A DNA stretch of 32,000 nt, taken from NCBI GenBank assembly GCA_963827685.1, contig CAWHBU010000004.1, positions 672,943-704,942 on the forward strand, written 5' to 3'. The number at the start of each line of letters is the position of its first letter. The stretch's first letter is position 1. This document shows, in pieces, positions 4,934 through 27,698 of the stretch. The notes beneath the pieces were generated by a model, which was given only the letters and a program-made list of their open reading frames with translations, did no database searches and was not told the origin of the DNA. Source of the DNA: an uncultured delta proteobacterium (GTDB lineage Bacteria > Desulfobacterota > BSN033 > UBA1163). The position numbers were made by a program, and so were the translations under genes.

Positions 4934-7573
4934 CTATCGAGACTGCTTGATCTTTTCCGGAGTAATCGGTAGATCCCGGACACGCAAGCCACAAGCATGA
5001 TAAATAGCATTCGCAATGGCTGGCGCGGTTGGGACATCGGCATACTCCGCCATCCCAGAAGCCCCGAAGGGTCCCTTCGATTTCGGGATATCGAGAGTGA
5101 TCACCTCCATATCGGGCATATCTTTGGCCCTCGGGACCTTAAGCTTGGCGAAGGTATCGGTTTTGGTGTAGACAAAATCTTCCATGAGGGCATATCCGAG
5201 GCCCATGGCAATGCCTCCATGGAGCTGACCTTCAACATGTTGACTATTGATCACCGTTCCAAGATCATGAACGGAAGTGATCTTGAGGACATCCACCTTG
5301 CCCGTCTTCACCTCCACAGCCACCTCTGCCATCTGGATCCCAAAAGAGTAGGTTTCCCAGGGAATCCCTTGACCAGTCTTCGGATCAGGCCTTGAAGTGA
5401 CGGGTTTGTTGATTGCCTTGAAAAGAGTAGGCAAGCCTTTGGCCTTCATCTCGCTATAGGTTTTGACGCGATTTTCCTCCATGGCCTTTTTCAATTCGGC
5501 CACAGCCATCTGGACAGCTTTTCCTGAAACGTAAGTCTGTCGGCTCCCAGCTGAAAAATTCCCATCCGGTGTAATTTCTGTGTCGGTGGTACAGACTTTA
5601 ACCCTTTCCAATGGAAATCCCATTGTCTCGGCGGCGACCTGCCAGAACATCGTATCCGCACCCTGTCCCATGTCCGCCGCCCCAATCCAAACCTGTAACG
5701 TATCATCGGGCAGAAGTTCGGCCCATGCTTCGGATTGATCTGGAGCACTTCGGCCCGGACCAAACCAAACTCCTCCCAATCCCACACCCCGCTTCACTTC
5801 ATCGGTCGTTTTCCCTTTTGCCTCGTTTAATGCTTTTTCATAGAGAGGTTTTATGGTTTCCATACACTCCTGGAAACCAATCGTGTGGTCTAATACCTGG
5901 CCGCAGATCGTTGTATCGCCTTTAACAAAACCATTTTTCATCCTGAGGGCTAAAGGATCCATTTTCAGCTGGGATGCCAACTCGTCGAGGGTGGACTCAA
6001 TGGCAAAAGCTACCTGGGGTACACCAAATCCTCTCATGGCGCCTTTGAAAGCCGTAGTGGTATAAACAGCTTTCCCATAGACATGGGCATTGGGGAACCG
6101 GTAAGGCCCCTGGGCATGGATAACACCTCGCTGTGTCACACTATTGCTAAAGGACTTATAGGCTCCGCCATCCGCCGTGACATCGAAATCCAATGCCATC
6201 AACGTCCCATCCTTTTTGGCTCCCACTTTGACCTTCATGAAGAAGGGATGGCGTTTGGGAGTAGCTGCAAATGTCTCGCTCCTTGTATAGACGAGTTTCA
6301 CCGGTCTTTTGAGCTTCAAGGCCGCAAGGCCCAGAATTCCACCCACGGAGACATCGAGCTTGCCTCCAAAGGCTCCGCCGGTTGGGGTTTGAATCACTCG
6401 AACCTTTTCCAAACCGAGACCCAAGGCCTCAGCAATGGTCTTGCGATGGGCGTGAATATTCTGGCCTGCTGCCATGACCACGAGTTGTCCATTCTCGTGG
6501 ATAAAGGCAACGCCAGAGTCGTTTTCCAAATAAGCATGTTCAACAGTTTGTGTGACATAGCTTTGCTCAACGACAACATCTGACTCCGAAAAACCCTTCT
6601 TGGCGTCACCATGGATGATGGGTTGCTCAAAAAAGAGGTTTGGACGATCGTCATGGACTCTTACGGCACCCTCTTTCAAGGCTTCCTCTGGTGTCAGGAC
6701 TGGTTCGAGAGGTTCATAGGTCACCTCAATCTTTTCGAGGGCATGGGAAGCGATTTCCTCAGAAGTTGCTACTACGGCAACCACTGGATCGCCGATGAAG
6801 CGGACTTTATTACTGCATAGGATGGGCTGATCATCTCCTGCCATCTTCAAGATGTTTGTTCCTTTTACATCTTTGGCAGTGAGAACGGCCAGCACTCCAG
6901 GGATAACCTCCGCCTCTTTCGTGTCAATGTTAATGATCTTGGCGTGGTGATGGGGACTTCTGAGAACCTTGATGTGGGCGCATCCGTCCACAGCGAGATC
7001 AGCAGCGTAGAGAGTGGTCCCCGTTGCCTTCTCGAGGGCGTCCCTTCGTGGAATGGGCTGGCCGAGGGTATTTCCCCCTTTCCATTTTAATCGAATTGAT
7101 TTTGTCTCTCTCCTGAAGTAAGAGGCCGCTAGTTCCACAGCCTCAAAGATCTTCTGGTACCCCGTGCAGCGGCAGATGTGGGGCTGAAGAGCCTTCTTGA
7201 TCTCCTCTCGGGTAGGGTTAAGATTTTCATCCAAGAGGGATTTGGTCCGAATGATCATGCCCGGCGTACAGAAGCCACATTGAATGGCCCCTGTCTTTGC
7301 AAAGGCCAATTGAATGGGATGGGGGTTCTGAAGTGTTCCGATTCCCTCAATGGTCGTTATCTCTTTGCTTTGGGCTTTAGCAACCGGAATCCTGCATGCG
7401 AAGACGACGTCGCCATCCATGAACACAGCGCAGGTGCCGCAATGACCGGCAGAACATGCTTCCTTTGTACCTGTCAACCTGAGATCTTCTCGAATCACTT
7501 TCAGTAAGCTTTTTTGAGGATCAACAATCACTCTTCGAGGGGCTCCGTTCAAGATGAAATTTATCTCCTGCAT
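4934..7573 (-). CDS. Mop-type aldehyde oxidoreductase (xanthine-oxidase family). Fused 2x[2Fe-2S] and molybdopterin-binding domains with no FAD domain, 879 aa.
   Basis: N-terminal CSAGHCGTCAV...C, CGFCTPGMI and CRCTGYQKI ferredoxin-type motifs run directly into a ~700-aa Mo-cofactor domain. This architecture matches Desulfovibrio gigas MOP. The SD GGAGG lies before ATG 7573. Confidence 0.9.
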   Translation of the reverse strand: MQEINFILNGAPRRVIVDPQKSLLKVIREDLRLTGTKEACSAGHCGTCAVFMDGDVVFACRIPVAKAQSKEITTIEGIGTLQNPHPIQLAFAKTGAIQCGFCTPGMIIRTKSLLDENLNPTREEIKKALQPHICRCTGYQKIFEAVELAASYFRRETKSIRLKWKGGNTLGQPIPRRDALEKATGTTLYAADLAVDGCAHIKVLRSPHHHAKIINIDTKEAEVIPGVLAVLTAKDVKGTNILKMAGDDQPILCSNKVRFIGDPVVAVVATSEEIASHALEKIEVTYEPLEPVLTPEEALKEGAVRVHDDRPNLFFEQPIIHGDAKKGFSESDVVVEQSYVTQTVEHAYLENDSGVAFIHENGQLVVMAAGQNIHAHRKTIAEALGLGLEKVRVIQTPTGGAFGGKLDVSVGGILGLAALKLKRPVKLVYTRSETFAATPKRHPFFMKVKVGAKKDGTLMALDFDVTADGGAYKSFSNSVTQRGVIHAQGPYRFPNAHVYGKAVYTTTAFKGAMRGFGVPQVAFAIESTLDELASQLKMDPLALRMKNGFVKGDTTICGQVLDHTIGFQECMETIKPLYEKALNEAKGKTTDEVKRGVGLGGVWFGPGRSAPDQSEAWAELLPDDTLQVWIGAADMGQGADTMFWQVAAETMGFPLERVKVCTTDTEITPDGNFSAGSRQTYVSGKAVQMAVAELKKAMEENRVKTYSEMKAKGLPTLFKAINKPVTSRPDPKTGQGIPWETYSFGIQMAEVAVEVKTGKVDVLKITSVHDLGTVINSQHVEGQLHGGIAMGLGYALMEDFVYTKTDTFAKLKVPRAKDMPDMEVITLDIPKSKGPFGASGMAEYADVPTAPAIANAIYHACGLRVRDLPITPEKIKQSR

Positions 7574-10552: not shown

Positions 10553-12169
10553 CTATAGCAGACCGTTTGCTTTCGCCTTGGTGACAATCTCAGGTTCTTT
10601 CCACCATTTTTGGATCCCCAGGTCCTGAGCGATTCGGTTGGCAGCGTTATAACCTGCACCATAGGTCACTAACCCTCCGGGGAAGGTGGAAGCTCCACAA
10701 ATGTAAAGATTTTTAATCGGCGTGGCATATTGAGAACAGAGTTCGTTTGGCCTCAAGTATCCCATCTGAAGAGGATAGTAACCTCCTTGCTTAATGGATC
10801 CTTCCACCATGTCTGCAAATTTATTTTCGATGTCCAGTGGAGAGGCAATATAGGTCCAGAGAATATTATCCTCCGTCATATTAGGTGCGTGCTTCTTAAG
10901 TTTATCGATCAATCCTTTGGCATGTTCTTGGCGGATCTTATACCACCTATCAGGGCCTCCCTCCTTTAGACGGTAGGGTGCATGTTCTGATATTAAACCG
11001 GTGTGTCTCCCTGGAGGTGCTTCTGAGGGATCGAAAATGGTTGGAAAGCAGCAGTTGAACCCGGATGGCTTGAGTTCTCCATTTTTTAAGGCTTTAAAAT
11101 GATCGATCAGATTCTCTTCCGTCTCAAATCCGAGAACATAAATAAAAGCTTTATTTAAATCGGGATTCGAAGCTGCAGCAGCAAATTGGGGTACATTAAA
11201 AAGCGCAAGGTGGATATCGAAGAGGGACCACTTCTCCCATTTCCAGTCCTTCGTCCGCGTGACAAGATCTTTTGGGAGATCCTTCTCCCCGATATACTTG
11301 AGAAACGTTTGATAGGGGTCGATGCTGGAGGCAACAAACTTGGTAGCTGTGTAAACCGTTCCATCATCTAATTCAATCCCTTTTGCCGTTCCATTTTCCA
11401 CGATGATTCTCTTGATGATCTGACTTCCTAAGATCATTCCTCCATGACGATAAAGAAATTTAGACATCAAGTTGGCCATATGATGAGAGCCTCCCACGCA
11501 GAGCCGATAGTTAGAAGCTCGATTGATCATGAGTGGAACCAGGTAACCCAGCCCTTCCAGATCATAATCCAATCCCCACAGACAGGTGGCATAGAGCATT
11601 AGCGTCCTGATTTGATTATTTTCGAAAATACTATGCACGATATCGATTGGTTTCTTTTCAGAAAGGGCACTGATTTCTTGACCAAGAGGACTGGAATGGA
11701 GTTTCACGACCTGTTCGAAGGCTGGCTTGGCCATATCGTAAGTAGCGGGTCCCAAGAAGGCATCTACATATTCCTTAAACCGTTTATAGGTATCCCGATA
11801 GGCATCGGCATCTTTCTTAGAGAATTGAGCAAATGAAGCACATGTTTTTTCCACATCCGAATAGATGCAAAGGCTACGGCCATCTGCGAAAGGCATCGCC
11901 ATGACCAAATCGGGATGAATATATTGGAGATCATAAGTTTTATCCAGGTCGAGATCAGGGAATACTGGGGCATAATCCACCATGGGATGGTAGATCGCAT
12001 GGGTATTGTGAATAAACCCGGGGATCGTGACCATCTCCGAGCAAAGGCCCCCTCCCATTTCGTATCTCTTTTCTAAGATCAGGATCTTTAGCCCTGCTTT
12101 GGAAAGGTAACAACCTAAAGTGAGTCCATTGGGCCCACCACCAATGATAATGCCATCGTATTGGGGCAT
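10553..12169 (-). CDS. FAD-dependent oxidoreductase of the phytoene-desaturase (CrtI/COG1233) type. CtmA/B-like subunit, 538 aa.
   Basis: N-terminal [38 protein letters not shown]. The SD GGAAAGGAG lies before ATG 12169. Confidence 0.85.
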
Positions 12170-12227: not shown

Positions 12228-12245
12228 AACTACATTTTCCAGTAT
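12228..12245. repeat. Left copy of the 18-bp target-site duplication (aactacattttccagtat).
   Basis: Identical 18-mer at 13785..13802, directly abutting both IS ends. Confidence 0.8.
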
Positions 12246-13784
12246 GTTTAAGCGAAGTCAATATGTCCCCTTAACTGCAACGTGAAAATGTCCCCTCCAA
12301 GGGTTTTGATCTTGACCCTTGAGTGAGTGGATGAACTTCAATTTGAGTTTCTTTTTTTTAAGTGAGCTCTCATAAGAGATCCCTATTAATGGGCAACAAG
12401 CGAAATGTGAATCGCCAGGTTGCGCTACAATCAACGATGTTCGATGAGCAGGGGGTAAGGGTCACCTTCCCTGGAGGGTGCTGAAGCGAGATAGACCCAG
12501 TGGTAATCTTTAACTCCTTTTGCATGGTGTTTCTTTCGGGGAAGAGCTCTCACCGGTTCCCGGAGGGAAGTAGGAGGATGTTTCGCAATCAACTGATCTT
12601 GAGCGTAGATTCTCCAAGATCCGTTGAGAAGCTGCCGAGCTTCCACCTTGAGCTTCGCATAGGATCTTCTTTGAGGGCCAGGGGGAATATCGAGAACCAA
12701 TCCTCCCAGCCGAGCCGTATTATCGTTGCCGACCGTAGCCGTATAGCGAAAGCTGATGATTCGATCCAGGTCCAGATGGTTTGGGACTTCTCTCCAGGCT
12801 TTTTGGGATTCTCTGGGTCTGACGGCAAAGCGACGGTTAAAGTCTTTTAAAAAGGTTGATTGTAAAAAGCGATTGGCCTCTTCCATCGTTACAATTTCTT
12901 TTAAACGGAGTTCTGCTCCCAGACGATCCTGCAGGGTGGCAAAGAGTTTTTCTATCCTTCCTTTGGCCTGAGGAGAAAGAGCCGAGATCGGCTCAATCCC
13001 CAAGGCTTCGAGAGCTAATCCGACTTGAGTCGGTTCCTGTCGGCCAGCGAGTTGCTCTTCCAAGCTCCAGTGAGGGTCATTCCGATGCAACGACCCGTGG
13101 CGATCCTGATAGATCATCATTGGGATTCCATATTTTTTAATCATCTCTTTAAGAAGCCAGAAATAGCCTGCGGAACCTTCAAAGGGAAAGAAACGGGCGG
13201 CCAGCAGTTTCCCGGTCGCATCATCGATGGCAGCCATCAGACAGCAAGGTGGAAGGTCTCGGCCAAACCAGGGGTGGGGACTCCCATCCCAGAGGACCAT
13301 CCATCCTTCTTGAGCCATTCGCTCCCGTCGCTTTCGATGCTTAGGTCCCCGACGCCTGCGCTTGGGTGCCATCCCCGCCTCCCGCCGTAACTTCCTCACC
13401 GTCTCTCGATTCAAATCGATCCCTTCGCACTCCCGAAGTTTCTCCGTAAAATGGGTATCGTTAAAGTCCCAGTAAACCTCTTCCGACAGCTTTAATACCC
13501 TTTCTCGTAAGGACTCCTTGAGCCGGTGGTTCGAAGGTCGTCCCCTGTTACCATGCACCAAGGCTTTGATCCCTCTCTCCCGGATCGCTTGCCCAATCCG
13601 CTTCGCCTGACGGTAGGACACACCTATCCTCTCTCCAGCCTCCCTCAAGGTGATCTTCCCTACCTTTACGATCTCCATCAGATGCCACCTCTTTAACTCC
13701 CTCTGCCCCATGAGTATCTTCTCCTGTTCCATGGGGACATTTTAACTTAAGCAGTTAATGGGGACATTTCTACTTTGCTAACAC
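12246..13784 (-). mobile_element. Intact insertion sequence (1539 bp) with ~50-bp imperfect terminal inverted repeats. rve/DDE transposase, IS1202/ISNCY-like or IS481-like.
   Basis: The left end is gtttaagcgaagtcaatatgtccccttaactgc..aaaatgtcccc. The reverse complement of the right end is gtgttagcaaagtagaaatgtccccattaactgc..aaaatgtcccc. Each end carries two ATGTCCCC motifs. The element is flanked by an 18-bp direct repeat. Confidence 0.85.
12431..13732 (-). CDS. Transposase with an N-terminal HTH and an rve integrase-core (DDE) domain, 433 aa.
   Basis: LWDGSPHPWF, IYQDRHGSL and SPQAKGRIEKLF form a D, D, E triad pattern. A basic KRRRRGPKHRKRRER linker is present. Confidence 0.9.
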   Translation of the reverse strand: MEQEKILMGQRELKRWHLMEIVKVGKITLREAGERIGVSYRQAKRIGQAIRERGIKALVHGNRGRPSNHRLKESLRERVLKLSEEVYWDFNDTHFTEKLRECEGIDLNRETVRKLRREAGMAPKRRRRGPKHRKRRERMAQEGWMVLWDGSPHPWFGRDLPPCCLMAAIDDATGKLLAARFFPFEGSAGYFWLLKEMIKKYGIPMMIYQDRHGSLHRNDPHWSLEEQLAGRQEPTQVGLALEALGIEPISALSPQAKGRIEKLFATLQDRLGAELRLKEIVTMEEANRFLQSTFLKDFNRRFAVRPRESQKAWREVPNHLDLDRIISFRYTATVGNDNTARLGGLVLDIPPGPQRRSYAKLKVEARQLLNGSWRIYAQDQLIAKHPPTSLREPVRALPRKKHHAKGVKDYHWVYLASAPSREGDPYPLLIEHR

Positions 13785-13802
13785 AACTACATTTTCCAGT
13801 AT
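13785..13802. repeat. Right copy of the 18-bp target-site duplication.
   Basis: Identical to 12228..12245. Confidence 0.8.
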
Positions 13803-14014: not shown

Positions 14015-14959
14015 TTGAATCTCAAACAATTAGAAGCTTTTTATTTGGTGGTAAAGAGGAAGAGTTTTACTCGGGCAGCAGAAGAATTGAATGTGACCCA
14101 GCCTGCTGTCACCATCCAAGTCAAATCCTTAGAGAAGTCATTGAATTTGAAACTCATCAATCAGATAGGGAAAAGAGTACAATTAAATGAAGCTGGAGAA
14201 CTCCTCTACGAATATGCGGAGAAAATCTTTGATCTTGTCAACGATGCCGATGAGAAGATGAGGGATTTCAAGAAACTGATGAGAGGGACGCTTCAGATTG
14301 GGACAACAAAGAATTATGCCCGTTACATCATGCCTTCTTTGCTCTCCGAGTTTCAGAGGAGATTTCCTCGTATCAAGGTCATTTTAGATGAAGGGAACTC
14401 CGAGGATATGGCCAAGAGTGTCTTTGAGAAGAAAAATGAACTCGCCCTCATCTCCCAACTGAACCTTGATCGAAAAATCAAATCAACCTTTTTCTCGACA
14501 GTAGAGTTTGTTCTGGTTGTTTCACCCGAACACAGGTTCTCGCAGAGGAAGAGCATCTCCCTGAGAGAATTGAATGGTGAACCGGTGATTTTGAGGGAAA
14601 AGGGATCTGGTTCAAGGGCGGCCATTTTGAGGAAATTTCAGGAATACGGGATCTGGCCATCGGTAATTACTGAGGCAAGCAGTTTGGACTTTATCGTGGG
14701 ATATGTGAAACAGAACAAAGGGGTTTCCTTCATGTTTCAGCCTGATATCGAAGAGGAATTGGAGAAGGGAACCTTGAAAGTTATCTTCATCGAAGAGGGA
14801 AACATTATTTTCTTTACTGATCTCATCTATCACAGTGAAAAATCTCTCTCACCTCCTAGCCAAGCCTTCCTAAAAATGGTGGGAGAATTAAGGGGCCAGG
14901 GTAAAGGGGAGTTTAGGGCAGGGTTCGTCCCGCCAAGTTCCGTTCTTCAAACCTACTGA
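14015..14959 (+). CDS. LysR-family transcriptional regulator (TTG start), 314 aa.
   Basis: N-terminal HTH LKQLEAFYLVVKRKSFTRAAEELNVTQPAVTIQVKSLEKSL. AAGGAG lies 6 nt before TTG 14015. Confidence 0.9.
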   Translation: MNLKQLEAFYLVVKRKSFTRAAEELNVTQPAVTIQVKSLEKSLNLKLINQIGKRVQLNEAGELLYEYAEKIFDLVNDADEKMRDFKKLMRGTLQIGTTKNYARYIMPSLLSEFQRRFPRIKVILDEGNSEDMAKSVFEKKNELALISQLNLDRKIKSTFFSTVEFVLVVSPEHRFSQRKSISLRELNGEPVILREKGSGSRAAILRKFQEYGIWPSVITEASSLDFIVGYVKQNKGVSFMFQPDIEEELEKGTLKVIFIEEGNIIFFTDLIYHSEKSLSPPSQAFLKMVGELRGQGKGEFRAGFVPPSSVLQTY

Positions 14960-14966
14960 AAATCCA

Positions 14967-15701
14967 TCAACATCTTCGTCTTTTATCCTCACTGTAGAGA
15001 TTTAGAAATTGATTGACGGCCTCCTGGGCGAATTCTCGAGTGTTAAGGTGGAGATTGAGCTCGATGATCGGGATCTTCGGATCGATATGAATCTTCAACT
15101 CGTCGAGGAAGGCGCGATCCCCCACTGGATCATAAAGAGGCATCCCTTCCTTATCGAGAGAAGACCATCCCTTCAAGGGGATGAGAATAGCCACAGGTCC
15201 TCTTGACCGATTTAATTTTCTGGCCACCTCTCCTGCAATTTCTTTCAACTCCTGAGGATTGGTGCGAGCTTGAACCCTAAAAGCATCCGGAATGAAAAGT
15301 TTTCTATTTTTGATATCCTTTGATACCCAAAGGGGATCTCCTCGATCACCTCTTTCCAATGGCCCACAACTGAGCATATCAAATCCGCAAGGCGTGATAA
15401 TTTGAGGAATGCCCAGTTTCCCGGCGGTCACCACAACATTTCTTCTCAATTGAGCAGCCAGCTTTTCTGAAATCTTTTTTACCAAGGCGTCCTCTTTATG
15501 CCCGATAAAAGTAAAATTGGAAGAGGTGGCACTCCATTTTTTCGGATTCTTTAAGCTGGGCCTCGGAATGGCGATTCCCACAGCACCGATATGAAATCGG
15601 GTTCCTCCCCAGGTGGAAATCAAGAGGTCTTGGCCCACCTCTTGAACAAAACCCTGGATCCTGAATCGACCTTTCGAAATTTCAACCAAAAATCTTTTCA
15701 T
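14967..15701 (-). CDS. Chimeric ORF. The N-terminal ~95 aa are LpdD-like (small prFMN-chaperone partner of UbiD decarboxylases), joined to the C-terminal ~150-aa domain of a UPF0261 (Tm-1-like) protein.
   Basis: Residues 1-95 (..DLLISTWGGTRFHIGAVGIAIPRPSLKNPKKWSATSSNFTFIGHKEDALVKKISEKLAAQL..VVVTAG) fit the LpdD pattern as I remember it. From GKLGIPQIITPCG...ILIPLKGWSSLDKEGMPLYDP the sequence is collinear with residues ~270-405 of the 16463..17680 product. There is no obvious SD before ATG 15701. Confidence 0.65.
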   Translation of the reverse strand: MKRFLVEISKGRFRIQGFVQEVGQDLLISTWGGTRFHIGAVGIAIPRPSLKNPKKWSATSSNFTFIGHKEDALVKKISEKLAAQLRRNVVVTAGKLGIPQIITPCGFDMLSCGPLERGDRGDPLWVSKDIKNRKLFIPDAFRVQARTNPQELKEIAGEVARKLNRSRGPVAILIPLKGWSSLDKEGMPLYDPVGDRAFLDELKIHIDPKIPIIELNLHLNTREFAQEAVNQFLNLYSEDKRRRC

Positions 15702-15830
15702 GGAATTGGTTCCAATTTTAGAAAGTCAGTGAGATTCTGTCAACCCCGATTTATCCTTTCTAGGCTACTCCCGATTCGGAATTTAGTAAAAAACTTAGTG
15801 GATGTGGTGACCAGAAACGAATGAAGAGAG

Positions 15831-16397
15831 TTAATCAGCCGCCGTCCCCCATCTTCTAAATAGGTTCGCATCGATAGAGAAAAGGTCGAGAACCTTTCCA
15901 ATGGTTTGGTTGATTAAATCTTCGATGGTCTTCGGATGATGATAAAAAGCAGGGATAGGAGGCATAACAATTCCTCCCATTCTTGTTACCTTGATCATCA
16001 GTTCAAGATGCCCCTCGTGCAAAGGTGTTTCCCTGACAAGAAGGACGAGCCTCCTCCTTTCCTTCAACATCACATCGGCCGCTCTCACAAGAAGGTTATG
16101 GCTATAGGAATTTGCAATCGCAGAAAGGGTCTTGATGGAGCAGGGAGCAACCACCATCCCATCCACCTGGAAGGAACCACTTGCCAAAGGTGCACTCAAA
16201 TCCTCCTCGTCATAAACATGGGAGGCCATGGATTCAAGTTCCACCTTGTGATAGGTGGTTTCAATTTCCAAGTTTTTCAAACCTGCCTGGGTGATGATAA
16301 AATGAGTCTCCATTCCCAATTTAGAAAGGACTTCGAGGATTCTCACGCCGTAAATCACACCGGAAGCACCGGTCATTCCTACGACTATGCTTTTCAT
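15831..16397 (-). CDS. ubiX: Flavin prenyltransferase UbiX (prFMN synthase).
   Basis: MKSIVVGMTGASGVIYGVRILEVL... plus S/T-rich loops and APCSIKTLSAIANS. ATG 16397 is preferred over the track's TTG 16421. Confidence 0.9.
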   Translation of the reverse strand: MKSIVVGMTGASGVIYGVRILEVLSKLGMETHFIITQAGLKNLEIETTYHKVELESMASHVYDEEDLSAPLASGSFQVDGMVVAPCSIKTLSAIANSYSHNLLVRAADVMLKERRRLVLLVRETPLHEGHLELMIKVTRMGGIVMPPIPAFYHHPKTIEDLINQTIGKVLDLFSIDANLFRRWGTAAD

Positions 16398-16462
16398 ATA
16401 AGGAGTAAGATCACTTGACAATCGACACAGTCTTACACACTTCTTGAAATTTCGTATGCACC

Positions 16463-17680
16463 TTATGTAAACAGCCCAATGCTTTCTTTCACAATCGTCT
16501 GGGCGAAAAGAGGTTCCTCCATGTTAGCCTCGATTTCTATGAGTTCAATACCAGATTTCAGTTCCTTTTGCAGTTCTGAAACAAATATTTTATCCTCTTG
16601 GGGGTCATAGGTCGGGCTATTTGGTAAATCCACTGATGACCATCCTTTAAGAGGGATGATGACTTTCACCGGTGCCTTTGATTTATTCAGTTTTTCTGCA
16701 AACGCATGCGCTGCTTTTACAAGTTCGTCAGGGGAAGCTCTGAGCCATGTACGAAATTTGTCGAGGTCATATTTTCTTCGACTTTTATGATCATTGGTAT
16801 ATTTAGATTTGGGAGGGGTAATATGATTCACCCCGCACGTGGAGATTATCTGAGGAATCCCTACCTTCCCTGCCGTCTCCATCCGATTGGGTCCTGCATC
16901 CCTCATACCACCAACAAGATGCTCTATGACACCTCCAGGAGCTAAATCAATTACCCCGTTGAAGAGCCCCTGCTCTATCATTTTTTCCATAGCCCTATCC
17001 CCTATCCCTGCTGCAGAAAATCCTATAACCTGGTATCCTTTCCCTTCTAAGGACGTCCTCACGTTACTAGCACACTTTTCGCAAGGACCTAACATAGTAA
17101 GAGCAATAACATTCCTCTTCTTGTAAGCGTAAACTGTTTGAAGAGTGGGCGCATCCACCATACCACAGATGGCATAAGCTCCTCTATCTATTACATTTTT
17201 AAGGATATCGCTTAGTCCTGAGATTTCTATAACAGAATGGATGAGGGCGATATCGCCTATTTCAATATACCGGGTTGACATACCAGGGAGGGCAGCGGTT
17301 GAGGAAATCATAACTTTTGGAACTCCAAATGGAAGAATCCTCATCACATCTGTAGCCATTAAAGAACCAGTAGACCCACCCATACCTATGATCCCATCAA
17401 GTTTTCCTTCTCTCCACATGTTAAGGGCAAGAGTCGCCGCACCTTTTGTCATGATCGCAGTGTTTTTTGCCCTTTCGTGGGATATAAGAATTTCCTCAAG
17501 TTTACTCCCTCCTGCCTCTGCCACCTTGTGAGCTGAAATATCAGCATTCATGCCCTCAGCCAATCTCATAGAGATGTCAAGAATCAAAGGATTTTTACCG
17601 AGTTGCCCTATTTTATCCCTTAGATAGAATGTTTCTGTTCCTTTGGTATCAAGGGTAGAGATGATCAAGATTGTTTTCAT
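16463..17680 (-). CDS. UPF0261 / Tm-1-like ATP-binding domain protein, full length (405 aa).
   Basis: N-terminal KTILIISTLDTKGTETFYLRDKI, then GMGGSTGS, ETAGKVGIPQIIS and IPLKGWSS. It starts 7 nt after the ligase stop. Confidence 0.75.
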   Translation of the reverse strand: MKTILIISTLDTKGTETFYLRDKIGQLGKNPLILDISMRLAEGMNADISAHKVAEAGGSKLEEILISHERAKNTAIMTKGAATLALNMWREGKLDGIIGMGGSTGSLMATDVMRILPFGVPKVMISSTAALPGMSTRYIEIGDIALIHSVIEISGLSDILKNVIDRGAYAICGMVDAPTLQTVYAYKKRNVIALTMLGPCEKCASNVRTSLEGKGYQVIGFSAAGIGDRAMEKMIEQGLFNGVIDLAPGGVIEHLVGGMRDAGPNRMETAGKVGIPQIISTCGVNHITPPKSKYTNDHKSRRKYDLDKFRTWLRASPDELVKAAHAFAEKLNKSKAPVKVIIPLKGWSSVDLPNSPTYDPQEDKIFVSELQKELKSGIELIEIEANMEEPLFAQTIVKESIGLFT

Positions 17681-17687
17681 TGCTATG

Positions 17688-19334
17688 TTATCCCCCAGCT
17701 ACTTTCTTTTCTAACCCTGCTTTCAGGACTTTTTTATCCACTTTGCCTGAGTCTCCCACGATAGGAAGGGATTCTAAGATTTCGAATCGCTCAGGTAGCT
17801 TATAAGCAGCCAGTTTCCTCTCCTTTAAGAAAGAGATCATCTCATCCTTCGTAAAAGTTTCCCGGGGCTTGACAACTACGAAAGCACAGGCCCGTTCCCC
17901 CATCTCCTTATCAGGATATCCGATGATGGCCACGTTTGCCACTTTTGGATGTTCGTTAAGAATCCCCTCTATCTCTGCAGGGTAAATATTTTGTCCACCC
18001 CTGATGATCATATCTTTTGCCCTACCCATGATCCAGAGAAACCCTTCTTCTGACTTCACAATGTCTCCTGTAGTTGTCCAGCCATCTTTATCAAATACCT
18101 GGGCTGTTGCCTCAGGGTCACGGTAATATCCTGCTGGTCCATGGGGACCTCTGAACCACAACGTCCCAGCCTCTCCCTCAGGCACCTCCTTTCCATCATC
18201 ATCTAATAGCCTCACTTTATTGCCTGGTAACATTCTCCCTACGGTTCTCCTCCTTATCTCTCCAGGGTCATCTACGCTGCAACCAGAAACAGACCCTACA
18301 TCCTGCGTCCCGAGGTCGCTTGTGATGATCGCCTTATATCTCTTTTCTGCCTCCTCCGCAACTTGAGGGGATAGATACCCGCCCGCTGAACGTATAAACC
18401 GTAAAGAACTCAAATCATACTTTTTCTCATCTACTTCAAGCATCCTTATCAGGTGGGTTGGCACAACCCCAATAGCAGTGACTTTCTCCTTCTCAATAAG
18501 GGCAAGTGCACCTTCAGGGTCAAACTCCTCCATCAGCACAGTTTTTGCTCCTACCAGAGGTGCTGCAAAGTAGGTAAGGGTTCCTGCTGCTCCACCTGCA
18601 TGGGGAGCAATAGCGAGTGTTACGTCGTCCTTCGTCAATTTCCAAATATCCACTCTTGCCTTAGAGGTGCAAATTCTCGGTGCGATGGGCCATTCCACCA
18701 GTTTGGGAAGACCAGTCGTCCCTGTGGTGCTGGTAAGCAATCCTACATCCGAATAGGCATTGAATCTTTTCTTATTGAGGATGGAAAGTTTTGATTTGTT
18801 CACAGGTTGATTCGCAAGCTTAATGATGGAGAATGTCCCTTCCGGGGCAGAAGCAGGAATCTCCTCCTCAAAAAGGAAAAAATATTTAAGATAAGGTGAT
18901 GTCTTTCTTAGCTCTTTATACATGTCAAGGTAATTGAATTTACGATAGATATGAGGAATGGCAACTGCAACGGCCTCTGTCCTTTCAACCATAAAGGTGA
19001 GTTCTTTTTCCCTTAAATAGGGATACACTGTTAGAGAGATCAAACCTGCTCGTTCACAGGCAATACGGGCAATGAAGCCATAGACACTGTTGGGAGCCTG
19101 GATAATCATCCGCGAATCTTTTGGAATCCCCATCTTTACCCAGACATAGGCAAGATTGTCTACCAATCGTTTTACTTGAGCCCACGTAACTCTATAGCGG
19201 GAATCAACTAGAGCCTCTCGATCACCAATCTCACGAGCATTTTTTGCCCAGAAATCATAAAAGACTTCGTCAGCCCAGTAGCCATCTCTCTTAAACTCCT
19301 TTATCATTTCGTCACCATACCTTATAGGTCTCAT
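17688..19334 (-). CDS. AMP-forming aryl/alicyclic-acid CoA ligase (adenylate-forming superfamily; EntE/DhbE/AliA-like N-terminus).
   Basis: LTSTTGTTGLPK (AMP-binding core), GYYRDPEAT, TGD...G...I.GR.KD.I..GG.NI. ATG 19334 lies 6 nt after GAGGTG, so the track's GTG 19343 is probably too long. Confidence 0.9.
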   Translation of the reverse strand: MRPIRYGDEMIKEFKRDGYWADEVFYDFWAKNAREIGDREALVDSRYRVTWAQVKRLVDNLAYVWVKMGIPKDSRMIIQAPNSVYGFIARIACERAGLISLTVYPYLREKELTFMVERTEAVAVAIPHIYRKFNYLDMYKELRKTSPYLKYFFLFEEEIPASAPEGTFSIIKLANQPVNKSKLSILNKKRFNAYSDVGLLTSTTGTTGLPKLVEWPIAPRICTSKARVDIWKLTKDDVTLAIAPHAGGAAGTLTYFAAPLVGAKTVLMEEFDPEGALALIEKEKVTAIGVVPTHLIRMLEVDEKKYDLSSLRFIRSAGGYLSPQVAEEAEKRYKAIITSDLGTQDVGSVSGCSVDDPGEIRRRTVGRMLPGNKVRLLDDDGKEVPEGEAGTLWFRGPHGPAGYYRDPEATAQVFDKDGWTTTGDIVKSEEGFLWIMGRAKDMIIRGGQNIYPAEIEGILNEHPKVANVAIIGYPDKEMGERACAFVVVKPRETFTKDEMISFLKERKLAAYKLPERFEILESLPIVGDSGKVDKKVLKAGLEKKVAGG

Positions 19335-19395
19335 TTCATTCACCTCTTGTCATGAAATTCCAATATCAACCGCAGTATCGGAGAAGGGCAGTTTT

Positions 19396-20817
19396 TTAAC
19401 CTTCAAATCCATACTCTTTCCAGCGAGCCTTAACCTTTTTCACGATCTCTTCATCCAGTTTTATTTCAACCGGTTTTCGTTCCCATTCAAATGGAATACA
19501 GGCATCCATGATGATTCGCGAAACAATTTCTCTGGCATCAACGGGAAGGGCAGGATCAAGCGGGGTGGAACGCCCTCTCTTAATGATCTCTGTGCTCCGG
19601 TAAGGATCATAACGCATGGACAAGGCCCATAAGACCCTATCAATGTCATCGGCTCTGATATCGTCATCCACTACAATGACCCCTTTCATGCCGTAGTGGC
19701 CTGTCGTGGTGGAGATGACTGCTGTGCCCACTTGCATGGAGTGGCCAGGGTACATCTGTTTGACAGATACGATTCCCCAGAATCTGCCGCCCGTTTCAGG
19801 GGGGATATATACAGACTGGATGCCCGGGACCTTCATATTCTCCAGGTCTGTCCAGAGGGTTGCTGTGCGGTTCAGAGATTGAATCATATGGGTATCGGTC
19901 ACTGGTTTCCCTACAGAGGTGGACCAAAAGACTGGATTGTTCCGGTGGAGAATCCGCTTCACGTTCAGACAGGGCTTGGGCCACTCCTCCCCGGTCTTTC
20001 CAGAATAGTAACCAGTATATTCCCCAAAGGGTCCTTCTTGCCTGAATTTTTCAGGATCGGTCTCAATCTCACCCTCCAAGATAATTTCAGCCGTACTGGG
20101 AAGGGGAAGGCCGGTCAGGTCGCTTTTGATAACTTCACAGGGGGTTCCTCTTAAGGATCCCACAATATCATATTCGCAGAGACCGGCAGAGACCAGAGTG
20201 CTCCCAGCAAGGAAGAGAAGGGGATCACCCCCAATCACCGCTGCTGCAGGCATTGTTTTTTTCATCTTCTGATATTTCTTCAACATGAAGTCAGCATGTT
20301 TCCCTTTGATGATCTGGACTCCTGCGGTCTTTTCATCCAAGACCTGCATTCGATAGGTTCCCAGATTGACCCAATCACTCTCAGGATCTTTAGTGATGAC
20401 AAAGTGGGCTGTTCCAATAAAGCGGCCACCATCCATCGGATAGAATTTGGGTACAGGGAAGTTGAGGAGGTTGATATCACGCCCTTGGATGATCTTCTCT
20501 GTAATTGGCCCGGTTTTGACCTCCACACGCGGGATTAATTTTTTGGTCGTCAGTTCCATCCATCTCTTTGCCATGTCGTACATTGAAAAATGGAGTGGCA
20601 TTCCGAGAGCAATGGCCAGACGCTTTGGTGAGGTTAAGGCGCTTGTCAGTAAAGGAATCTGGTAGTCTTTCACTTTTTCGAAGAGAAGAGCTGGGCCCTT
20701 CTTCTCCTCGTTCAACTTCGCGATGTGGGAGAGTTCGAGATTCCAGTCGACTTCAGCCTTTATCCTCTTTAGTTCTCCTTCCTCTTCACACTTTTTTATA
20801 AAATCTCGAAGATCCAT
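19396..20817 (-). CDS. UbiD-family prFMN-dependent (de)carboxylase, 473 aa. Its size class matches phenylphosphate carboxylase alpha/beta and 4-hydroxybenzoate decarboxylases.
   Basis: Signature EGPFGEYTGYYSG with family-typical N-terminal DLR.FI..C...GEL..I...VD. The SD GAAGGAGG lies before ATG 20817. Confidence 0.9.
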   Translation of the reverse strand: MDLRDFIKKCEEEGELKRIKAEVDWNLELSHIAKLNEEKKGPALLFEKVKDYQIPLLTSALTSPKRLAIALGMPLHFSMYDMAKRWMELTTKKLIPRVEVKTGPITEKIIQGRDINLLNFPVPKFYPMDGGRFIGTAHFVITKDPESDWVNLGTYRMQVLDEKTAGVQIIKGKHADFMLKKYQKMKKTMPAAAVIGGDPLLFLAGSTLVSAGLCEYDIVGSLRGTPCEVIKSDLTGLPLPSTAEIILEGEIETDPEKFRQEGPFGEYTGYYSGKTGEEWPKPCLNVKRILHRNNPVFWSTSVGKPVTDTHMIQSLNRTATLWTDLENMKVPGIQSVYIPPETGGRFWGIVSVKQMYPGHSMQVGTAVISTTTGHYGMKGVIVVDDDIRADDIDRVLWALSMRYDPYRSTEIIKRGRSTPLDPALPVDAREIVSRIIMDACIPFEWERKPVEIKLDEEIVKKVKARWKEYGFEG

Positions 20818-25179: not shown

Positions 25180-25304
25180 ATATATTGGTTAAGGAAGTCT
25201 AAATCGCTGTAGTTTATTTAGATAAAGGATCATTAGAAATCAATTAACCATTTTTGAAATGTTGGGGAGATAAAGTCTTTTCGACATGGAAGGAGGTAAC
25301 TTTT

Positions 25305-26417
25305 ATGGGAAATGAAAAACCACCAAAAAAGATCGGCATCGGTCCCCTCGGAAGAGGGGGAGGACTCATTCAATTCATCGTTTTCGCTATCGTCGGGATT
25401 GTCATATTCGTCTACTGCATCTCTCCAGCATCTATCGTTTTGACACTCATCCCTGCCACACTCATTATGCTCATCGTCCTCGGCCATTTAGTACTTTTGG
25501 GCGATAATTGGCCGTGGGCACCCCCAGCGGGAAATTGGACGCCTGCCAAATCGCGTTTCATTGCGGGAATTGGGATGACCATCATCTGGGCCATTTTTAC
25601 TTTCGCTGTGTTACTGTTCATGAGATTCATCTATCCCCAATGGCCAATAGGCCCACTTTATCTTTGGTTTGGGGTCATCGGGTTCTGGGCTACCCTCCTT
25701 TATGGGGTAAACTGGGGGGGATGGCCTTTTAAAGGGAAAGTCCATCCCTGGGGAATGATGGCAATCAGTTTCATTATTGTCATGGTCGTTTCTATCCTCA
25801 TCTGGAATTTCTTAACCAATCTTGATGGGACACCTCTTGCGGATACTCCGATCAATCATAAGGGGCCCCTCAATGTGAACTGGTTAACAGGATACCTGGT
25901 CTGGGCAATTGCCTGGTTCTTTGTCTTTAGCCCTGTCTTCACTACCCAAGGTTGGCCCTTTGCCAAATGGGGACATCCTGGGGCAGCCATTGGTCAGACT
26001 ATCCTTGCTCACATTTTGGGCTACATCTTCTGGAGCGGAAGTCTGGCTCTGGGTATTAGCCCAACCTTCTCGTTTGCCGCTTTGGGCTCATCCCTTATAT
26101 TTTGGCCTCTGGTTCACTCCTGGCATCTCCAGTTCTGGGGGCTCACGAAATACACCTTCTATAAAAGGGCAATTTCGGCATTCATTCTCCAGTGCATCAT
26201 CATCGCTATCTGGCTTATCATCATAAGGCCGATCCTTGGCCCTGCTGCCGAGGCCGTAGCAGCTGCGAAACTTCCAGCCGATGTAAACGTCCTCGTCATC
26301 TACCTTAACCTTTGTGTTATGGGTCCGGCACTCATTGCACACAACGCCTTCTGGTTGAGATGGCCACTGACACTTCCCAATCCACCAGGAACTCCGCCCC
26401 CTGATCAAGCTGTCTAA
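25305..26417 (+). CDS. Trp-rich polytopic membrane protein (~10 TM, 370 aa) of unknown family. Possible transporter.
   Basis: ATG 25305 lies 7 nt after GGAAGGAGG. There are about ten hydrophobic segments and, by my count, 23 Trp. The GWPF motif is repeated (NWGGWPFKG, TQGWPFAKWG). Confidence 0.7.
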   Translation: MGNEKPPKKIGIGPLGRGGGLIQFIVFAIVGIVIFVYCISPASIVLTLIPATLIMLIVLGHLVLLGDNWPWAPPAGNWTPAKSRFIAGIGMTIIWAIFTFAVLLFMRFIYPQWPIGPLYLWFGVIGFWATLLYGVNWGGWPFKGKVHPWGMMAISFIIVMVVSILIWNFLTNLDGTPLADTPINHKGPLNVNWLTGYLVWAIAWFFVFSPVFTTQGWPFAKWGHPGAAIGQTILAHILGYIFWSGSLALGISPTFSFAALGSSLIFWPLVHSWHLQFWGLTKYTFYKRAISAFILQCIIIAIWLIIIRPILGPAAEAVAAAKLPADVNVLVIYLNLCVMGPALIAHNAFWLRWPLTLPNPPGTPPPDQAV

Positions 26418-26479: not shown

Positions 26480-27698
26480 TTAAGGCCGATGGAACCGTAT
26501 CATATTATCTAAAACTTCCACTGCTCTTAGCGCAAAAGCAGGGTCACTGATATGAACGTCCATCTCTTCAATAGGGATGTTAGGGTTGATGAGCTTTCTC
26601 AATTCTTCTACAAAAATCTGGTCCGTCTTTGGATCATAAAGCTCCATTCCAGCTTTGTCAGCTTCAGACCAACCTTTCTTGGGGATCAGGACATAGGCCG
26701 GTCCCTTTGATCTGTTCAATTTTTCTCCAATGATGTAAGCAAATTTTTTCATCTCTTCAGGTCCCATACGGACACAGAATCGGATATCATGGGAATGTAT
26801 CTTTCTCCCTTTTAGTTGGTCTGGCATAGGATAAAAAGGACTGAATACGGCATTATCGAGCCCCTCCTGGCACAACCACTTGAGGGATTCCGAACTGCCC
26901 TGCGGTTTCCAACCGCATGGGACCGATCCCTTTGCAATATCCTCCAAACATTTCATCTGCTATCTCATGAGTAGTAAAATCAAGCACACCAGCAACCAGG
27001 CCTTCAGCAATGAATTCTTCCATGGCCATTCCACCGATTCCATTGGCGTGAAAAGCAATCATTTCATATCCTCTTTCTCGAAGGAGAGATTCCGCCTGCA
27101 TTGCACAAACTGAATTGATGCCGTAGGCTGTCACAGCAACCATGGGGTTTTCTTTTTTTATCACGCTTCCTTTTTCTATCATTCCGCCTATGGCATAAGC
27201 GGCTTGTCCCAGCATCAGACGCATAAATTCATTGGAACCCAAAATATCTGCTACCGAATGGAACATGACAATATCTTTCGTTCCGATATATTCCCTGATA
27301 TCTCTGGAGGCCACTGTGGAAAGTACCACCTTGGGCAGGCCGAAAGGAAGGGAACGCATAATATGGGTTACGATCGCTGTTCCTGTTCCGCCTCCCATCC
27401 CAAATACCCCATGGAGTTTGCCTTTTTCAAAGAGTTCTCTTGCCAAGATAGCCCCGCCTTCTTGGACGGCTTTAATAGCGAGAGAACGATTTTTTTCTTT
27501 GATTAAATGTTCCCAATGATACCCGGCAGCCTCCATCACCTCGACTCGATGGATATCCGGATGGGTGAGAGGTTCTCCCAAAGTTCCGATATCCATCAGG
27601 ATAGGATGTATACCGAGTTTTTGTGCGCAATCCTTTACATAAGCTGCTTCGTTTCCCTTTGTATCCAAAGTGGCAATGATGAGCAGTTGTTTTTTCAT
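26480..27698 (-). pseudogene. UPF0261 / Tm-1-like protein, second copy, interrupted by a 1-nt frameshift in a G4/C4 run at 26861-26864. Either a pseudogene or a sequencing error.
   Basis: The 281-aa ORF ends ..ETAGQFGIPQVVVPGGAR*. The 158-aa ORF continues in the other frame with GLDNAVFSPFYPMP...LIPKKGWSEADK. Removing one G restores GIPQVVVPGGLDNAVF, which is collinear with the intact copy. Confidence 0.7.

Follow-up and report, generated by a model that had tools for sequence, protein, structure and literature searches.

An lpdD–UPF0261 chimeric reading frame that was probably left by a recent illegitimate recombination

LpdD of Lactobacillus plantarum (lp_0272; PDB 8P4W, 8PZH, and 8PO5) binds prFMNH2 and acts as a chaperone for UbiD enzymes (Gahloth et al. 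2024, PMC10865409). Its monomer consists of a six-stranded sheet and two helices, and the loop that follows strand 6 forms part of a conserved, conformationally responsive surface (PMC10865409). The sole characterised enzyme of the UPF0261 family is MarK from Novosphingobium aromaticivorans (PDB 9MPY), an ATP-dependent aromatic kinase that phosphorylates phenolic aromatics; in both MarK and Tm-1, the N domain holds the ATP site (PMC12624787).

Here, we examined a reading frame in which parts of these two families are joined. The frame (P0001; 14967–15701, minus strand) lies in a 32,000-nucleotide stretch of DNA, hereafter the window, and encodes 244 amino acids. Codons 1–94 of an lpdD gene are in frame with a UPF0261 3′ end, and the C-terminal side, with its native stop, comes from the final ~150 codons of a ~425-residue UPF0261 gene. 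The first-pass annotation of this DNA had described residues 1–95 as LpdD-like and the rest as the C-terminal domain of a UPF0261 protein, and a separate profile match for each half supports both assignments. The reading offered there depended on the N-terminal half being LpdD-like, and in the profile search residues 10–94 match Pfam PF21758 (PAC_bac, bacterial proteasome-assembly-chaperone-like; now LpdD_chaperone) with 78.3 bits (4.6e-22), against a gathering score of 27. Residues 91–235 match PF23189 (UPF0261_C) with 108.4 bits (4e-31). Both matches are partial, spanning only profile positions 2–85 of 115 and 80–217 of 218, respectively, and against the NCBIfam PRK02399 (UPF0261) models the chimera gives sub-threshold matches confined to the C-terminal part. 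LpdD chains in the PDB (8P4W and others) align with chimera residues 10–94 through LpdD residues 8–87, and MarK and Tm-1 (3WRW) align with chimera residues 95–235 through MarK residues 269–394 and Tm-1 residues 300–428.

The two halves meet at T92-A93-G94, a tripeptide that is common to both parents, as had been proposed. Across this site, intact LpdD reads VVVTAG followed by VHWDRITSNEIK (VHWD after TAG), and intact UPF0261 reads NRLETAG followed by KLGIPQI. The predicted tryptic peptide across the joint of the chimera is NVVVTAGK, and the next is LGIPQIITPCGFDMLSCGPLER.

We compared the window with 18 related loci (L001–L018) by blastn. The lpdD-derived part of the chimera (codons 1–94) occupies 15421–15701 (minus strand), where nucleotide homology to the lpdD genes of L009–L016 ends at 15421, and 91 of its 94 residues are identical to an intact 143-residue LpdD of related bacteria. 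The UPF0261-derived part (14967–15420, minus strand) corresponds to residues ~276–425 of an intact ~425-residue protein. Chimera residues ~93–244 share 80–92% amino acid identity with the C-termini of dozens of full-length ~425-residue proteins (P0002, P0004, and others), and positions 10818–11589 of a metagenome contig, L017, are 97.7% identical in nucleotide sequence to window 15433–14662. This contig carries an intact 427-residue UPF0261 gene.

The first-pass annotation had also noted that the C-terminal half is collinear with the intact UPF0261 protein encoded two genes upstream, a 405-residue paralog (16463–17680, minus strand) within a UbiD–ligase–UPF0261–UbiX–lpdD operon. The collinearity is readily confirmed (chimera residues 88–237 against 265–405, 38% identity, E = 3e-30), but the parentage that it implied is not. 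The UPF0261 half is only 37–38% identical in amino acids to the 405-residue paralog and 45% identical to the C-terminal piece of another paralog at 26480–26956, and a nucleotide alignment of 14967–15420 with both window paralogs gave no significant match. A copy of a window paralog is thus ruled out as the source of this half. Judged by these comparisons, it derives from a separate, strongly conserved ~425-residue subfamily and not from either paralog in the window.

This subfamily appears to be mosaic at its 3′ end when window 14967–15420 is set beside L008 and L017. L008 and the window are near-identical over ~360 nt, after which the final ~90 nt differ strongly (29–39 of 45 bases matching), and the C-terminal tail encoded in the window, NQFLNLY.EDKRRRC, is also present in L017 and P0002. 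The mosaic end suggests recombination among strains.

The breakpoint could be placed from both sides. In the lpdD-bearing loci (seven to eight; L009, L010, L011, L012, L013, L015, and L016), homology to the window is always lost at 15421, and in the ~425-residue UPF0261 loci (at least eight, among L001–L008, L017, and L018), homology starts at 15415–15433. L011 and L012 are collinear with the window over 9–10 kb at 88–90% identity, a stretch that takes in a 387-residue gene, PPDK_N, PEP-utilizer, LysR, UbiD, CoA ligase, the 405-residue UPF0261, UbiX, and lpdD up to codon 94. Past this codon, both continue into the rest of an intact 143-residue lpdD and then into a convergent NTP-transferase gene. 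We mapped the crossover by a three-way alignment of the window, L011/L012, and L017/L008. The window equals L011/L012 up to GTGGTGACCGCCGG and equals L017/L008 from GGGAAACTGGGC on, with the informative sites placing the switch of parent between 15423 and 15420. In the crossover zone (15421–15434, minus strand), lpdD has TGGTGACCGCCGG and UPF0261 has TGGAGACCGCTGG. These form an imperfect 14-nt microhomology in which the parents have TGG(T/A)GACCGC(C/T)GG in common, or 12 of 14 bases; the number of exact bases at the crossover is 2 to 9, depending on the parental allele. The breakpoint together with this shared stretch is a signature of illegitimate, microhomology-associated recombination. A microhomology-mediated rearrangement was one of the two origins that the first-pass annotation had put forward, and the exact breakpoint, the 14-nt imperfect microhomology, the truncated domains, and the unique architecture described below all speak for it.

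A junction known from one record only could instead be a chimeric join made during assembly of a metagenome-derived genome and present in no cell. A nearby gene has a +1 frameshift in a G-run that is typical of consensus errors (para3, discussed below), and many genes are split on related contigs from similar projects. However, the join lies inside an 881-kb contig, both flanks otherwise follow real loci with perfect collinearity over >10 kb, and the exact bases common at the crossover, at most 9 and possibly 2, are far below assembler k-mer or overlap lengths. We therefore regard an assembly artefact as quite improbable.

Upstream of the joint, the window has the native surroundings of lpdD. 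Its native upstream neighbour is the gene for a UbiX flavin prenyltransferase (15831–16421, minus strand), and the same operon includes, besides the 405-residue UPF0261, an AMP-forming acyl/aryl-CoA ligase (17688–19343, minus strand) and a UbiD-family enzyme (19396–20817, minus strand). The latter matches TIGR02724 (phenylphosphate carboxylase subunit beta) with 650.8 bits against a cutoff of 469 and is likely the client of UbiX and LpdD. On the other side of the chimera lies a convergent gene for a 314-residue LysR-family regulator (14015–14959, plus strand), the native downstream partner of the ~425-residue UPF0261 gene, and the gap of 7 nt between the two is as found for the ~425-residue gene in relatives. 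Beyond LysR are FAD oxidoreductases of 538 and 554 residues, an SDR, a Mo-hydroxylase, an ARMT1-like gene, and a PEP-utilizer. This downstream gene order agrees with that of L006, L007, L008, and L018, the sole difference being an ISNCY insertion in the window.

The inserted element is an ISNCY-family insertion sequence of 1.54 kb (12228–13802) between the LysR and 538-residue FAD oxidoreductase genes. It encodes a transposase (12431–13732, minus strand; NF033594, 370 bits) and has imperfect inverted repeats at 12245–12270 and 13760–13785, and the 18-nt direct repeat AACTACATTTTCCAGTAT is found on both sides of it. The site is empty in L006, L007, L008, and L018. Elsewhere in the window, a conserved 387-residue ORF (25254–26417, plus strand) adjoins phenylphosphate-synthase-like genes; it is syntenic in L009, L010, and L011, is absent at the matching place in L013, L015, and L016, and has no match in Pfam or NCBIfam. 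An Rfam scan across the whole window gave no matches.

Both origins considered in the first-pass annotation were taken to imply that lpdD and the UPF0261 gene had been neighbours, a claim that the related loci do not uphold. The gene after lpdD is a convergent NTP-transferase gene in seven loci (L009 and L011–L016), a divergent 189-residue gene precedes the ~425-residue UPF0261 gene in another seven (L001, L002, L006, L007, L008, L017, and L018), and in none of the sampled relatives does lpdD directly adjoin the ~425-residue gene. A separate junction between the same two loci is present at 5960–6065 of L003 and also in L004 and L005. There, the decayed first ~72 nt of para3, a third UPF0261 paralog, are joined 25 nt upstream of an intact ~425-residue gene; the remnant has AGG in place of ATG and a 5-nt deletion. 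This rearrangement puts the ~425-residue gene behind the para3 upstream region, with its usual 189-residue neighbour gone. Two independent joints between the loci suggest one ancestral replicon and the same orientation, in which case deletion would be the simplest mechanism. The lpdD and ~425-residue UPF0261 loci may thus have shared one replicon.

L003 had prompted a different idea, namely that the UbiD/LpdD cluster was inserted into a UPF0261 gene flanked by HDAC and a 208-residue gene. This was revised, as HDAC and the 208-residue gene are the native flank of para3, and the 189-residue gene is the native upstream neighbour of the ~425-residue gene. In the window, para3 (26480–27698, minus strand) is split into ORFs of 281 and 158 residues by one extra G in a G-run near 26858–26862, a +1 frameshift relative to the intact orthologs in L015, L013, L007, and L010; either the gene is truly a pseudogene or the extra base is a consensus error in the homopolymer. 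The split gene was also considered as the missing 5′ part or reciprocal product of the fusion and was ruled out, since it is a separate paralog with orthologs in L007, L010, L013, and L015.

Overall, we consider it quite likely that a recent illegitimate recombination left the chimera behind as an in-frame scar, with deletion as the simplest form of the event. In the proposed event, lpdD would have been cut after codon 94 and its frame continued from about codon 275 of a ~425-residue UPF0261 (MarK/Tm-1-like) gene, with the crossover occurring via the short imperfect microhomology GACCGC(C/T)GG. The lpdD gene closes a phenylphosphate-carboxylase-like UbiD/CoA ligase/UPF0261/UbiX/LpdD operon, and the UPF0261 gene opens a second aromatic-catabolism cluster (UPF0261, LysR, two FAD oxidoreductases, SDR, Mo-hydroxylase, and others). 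LpdD function would then probably be supplied by P0121, an intact 143-residue copy that is recorded on a contig of the same length as that of the chimera, 881,707 bp, and is taken to lie elsewhere on it. A simple deletion does not predict P0121, and a deletion therefore requires a pre-existing second lpdD copy.

The record, on a contig of this length, of an intact lpdD that is 97% identical to the lpdD half could also point to a segmental or tandem duplication. In such a case, the duplicated segment would extend from UPF0261 codon ~275 to lpdD codon 94, with the chimera as its novel joint and both parents intact at the outer ends, and the 3′-end-to-5′-end polarity would be as expected if the UPF0261 cluster (cluster B) lay upstream of the lpdD cluster (cluster A). 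This origin is unlikely on two counts. The first 94 residues of P0121 are identical to those of the L011 lpdD and agree with the chimera at 91 of 94 positions, which is no closer than the 92 of 94 of P0250, an lpdD from an unrelated metagenome; P0121 thus looks like an ordinary paralog or ortholog and not a fresh duplicate. In addition, no intact ~425-residue UPF0261 or 5′ fragment of it from the contig was seen among the best hits or nearest 90% clusters, and in a search with residues 1–274 of the nearest intact ortholog, no protein from the 881,707-bp contig was among the best hits. This outcome favours a deletion together with a second lpdD over a duplication junction. Within the window, neither the 5′ part of the ~425-residue UPF0261 gene nor the lpdD 3′ end was found.

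The other origin that had been envisaged was a natural Rosetta-stone fusion, for which no second protein containing both halves was present in the database hits examined. Among hits in a clustered collection of 5.8 billion proteins, the two domains occur together in the query P0001 alone, a single sequence on one 881,707-bp contig. A word-index homology search with residues 1–94 missed P0001 itself (100% identical over the query), indicating that its negatives are not exhaustive, and given this miss, uniqueness was additionally tested across 1.84 billion representative sequences with an exhaustive HMMER search. It gave 1,755 hits; of the best 150, each covers residues 1–95 or ~90–240 of the chimera, and none spans both halves. 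A few long LpdD-containing hits carry extensions that are unrelated to UPF0261. A degenerate DNA pattern for N-V-V-V-T-A-G-K-(L/M)-G-I-P-Q-I had no match in 241 million JGI metagenome records. The recurrence expected of a Rosetta-stone LpdD–UPF0261 fusion was thus not observed.

The first-pass annotation had held that a unique architecture with clear signs of decay would speak against its reading; the architecture is indeed unique, but decay is not detectable in either half. The lpdD half has two synonymous and two nonsynonymous window-specific changes relative to L011, and the UPF0261 half has two synonymous and no nonsynonymous changes relative to L017. The lpdD half shows no deviation at the 42 positions with at least 98% conservation in LpdD, and its only unusual residue is T30, which is Ile in 88 of 98 homologs. 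Branch-specific substitution counts and rare-residue counts, which are underpowered at 2–4 changes per branch, revealed neither decay nor selection. The small number of window-specific changes indicates that the fusion event was very recent, and the substitution data fit a gene that is too young to decay and a gene that is still selected equally well. The unbroken frame and undetectable decay count against a dead remnant and are equally in keeping with a very young event.

As had been noted, no GGAGG-type Shine–Dalgarno sequence precedes the ATG of the chimera. A sigma-70-like promoter match, TTGACA-17-TAAAAT (15715–15743, minus strand; 11 of 12 positions), ends 13 nt before this ATG. The ~40-nt segment that bears it (15702–15745, minus strand) is present in the window, L011, and L012 and absent from L013 and L009; L011 and L012 have an intact lpdD. 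On this distribution, the putative promoter is native to lpdD in the closest relatives, and in this clade lpdD may be transcribed from a promoter of its own into an almost leaderless mRNA. Because the upstream segment is common to L011 and L012 with their intact lpdD, the missing Shine–Dalgarno sequence is native to lpdD in the clade and not a product of decay, and it possibly reflects a very short leader. From these sequence features, it is probable that the promoter of lpdD still drives transcription of the chimera and that the product is translated.

To locate the cuts, we used AF2 models of the intact parents P0121 (pLDDT 82.6) and P0004 (pLDDT 82.1). The P0121 model has strands at 3–10, 13–22, 25–33, 40–48, 56–64, and 89–96 and helices at 69–85 and 102–123. 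Of the six strands, the lpdD half retains five and most of strand 6, together with helix 1, and the cut falls at the end of strand 89–96. It lacks the 22-residue second helix (102–123), and by this model the complete LpdD fold of six strands and two helices is absent from the chimera. The metal-site residues H37, H68, and E70/D71 are kept, but the conserved H96, W97, and E104 are lost, as are L111 and I119; all five of the lost residues are invariant. The UPF0261 half has no PF06792 match in Pfam and thus no ATP-binding N domain; two features of that domain, the STLDTKG motif and the lysine that corresponds to MarK K16, are missing, as the alignment starts at MarK residue 269 and P0004 residue ~276. 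The C-terminal domain is itself incomplete, with the first 79 profile positions of PF23189 absent and, relative to the P0004 model, strands 195–200, 221–226, and 246–249 and their helices gone. Since the cuts fall inside folds and not in linkers, the product is unlikely to fold or act as either parent. Lacking the H96-W97 loop and second helix of LpdD, as well as the ATP domain and half the substrate domain of UPF0261, the chimera probably has neither LpdD chaperone nor kinase activity.

These losses bear directly on whether the chimera could be a functional, selected fusion in which an LpdD module for prFMNH2 delivery is physically coupled, through the UPF0261 C-terminal module, to the UPF0261 and UbiD machinery. 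The undamaged open frame, the promoter-like site still in place, the retained metal-site residues, and the undetectable decay are all compatible with such a role, and UPF0261 genes are truly co-operonic with UbiD, UbiX, and LpdD in relatives. Nevertheless, it is very unlikely, as the architecture occurs once among billions of proteins, both modules are cut within secondary-structure cores rather than at domain linkers, the invariant H96-W97 pair is gone, and the relative with 97.7% identity still has an unfused UPF0261 gene, which leaves no time for selection to be demonstrated. We would give equally little credence to a newborn gene, expressed from the lpdD promoter, whose LpdD fragment still binds prFMNH2 and whose UPF0261 C-terminal fragment docks on full-length paralogs, thereby tethering cofactor delivery to a kinase–carboxylase complex. 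In a weaker version of this idea, the chimera would be a dominant-negative subunit poisoning LpdD or UPF0261 dimers. We conclude that the chimera most likely represents a broken remnant and not a natural fusion with biological meaning. As a single, very recent rearrangement scar, it is of little importance in itself, but it would mislead automated Rosetta-stone inference and should not be used as fusion evidence for UPF0261 in prFMN/UbiD biology.

Gene order gives better support than the chimera does to a functional link of UPF0261 with UbiD biology. The operon UbiD–[CoA ligase]–UPF0261–UbiX–LpdD is conserved between the window (15831–20817, minus strand) and L009–L016, with a LysR gene and the phenylphosphate-synthase-like pair PEP-utilizer/PPDK_N encoded divergently from it. 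Intact UPF0261 genes lie inside UbiD/CoA ligase/UbiX/LpdD operons in several Thermodesulfobacteriota contigs. Taken together with the aromatic kinase activity of MarK, the operon order suggests a route in anaerobes that proceeds through a kinase, then a UbiD carboxylase, and then a CoA ligase. Within the literature collection searched, no paper names UPF0261 together with UbiD. This kinase–carboxylase–ligase hypothesis rests on gene neighbourhood, is independent of the chimera, and is testable.

Finally, we compared the chimera with the known systems. Like LpdD, it has counterparts of the Mn-site residues, with H37, H68, and E70 being the equivalents of H35, H61, and D63 of LpdD, and its gene directly follows ubiX in a UbiD operon. 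Unlike LpdD, it lacks the last third of the protein (the end of strand 6, the H-W loop, and the second helix), and unrelated UPF0261 sequence stands in its place; the lost H-W loop is the equivalent of the conserved loop 89–95 of the L. plantarum protein. Residues 95–244 resemble the UPF0261 family in being 80–92% identical to the C-termini of full-length members. In contrast to MarK and tomato Tm-1, the chimera has no PF06792 N domain, and with the absent first part of the C domain it has lost the residues that correspond to the MarK substrate ligands G195, T196, and H219. It has M, S, P, and L at the positions aligned to MarK F283, I285, H304, and H348, suggesting that even the UPF0261 parent may not share MarK's substrate.

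Microhomology-associated deletion, a form of illegitimate recombination, leaves chimeric or fused ORFs in bacterial genomes. The chimera shares with such deletion products a short imperfect microhomology, parents truncated inside domains, a single occurrence, and intact genes in close relatives. It differs from them in being in frame, for which the chance is one in three, and in being too young for measurable decay. These comparisons highlight that the chimera is a further instance of a familiar object, an in-frame deletion chimera.
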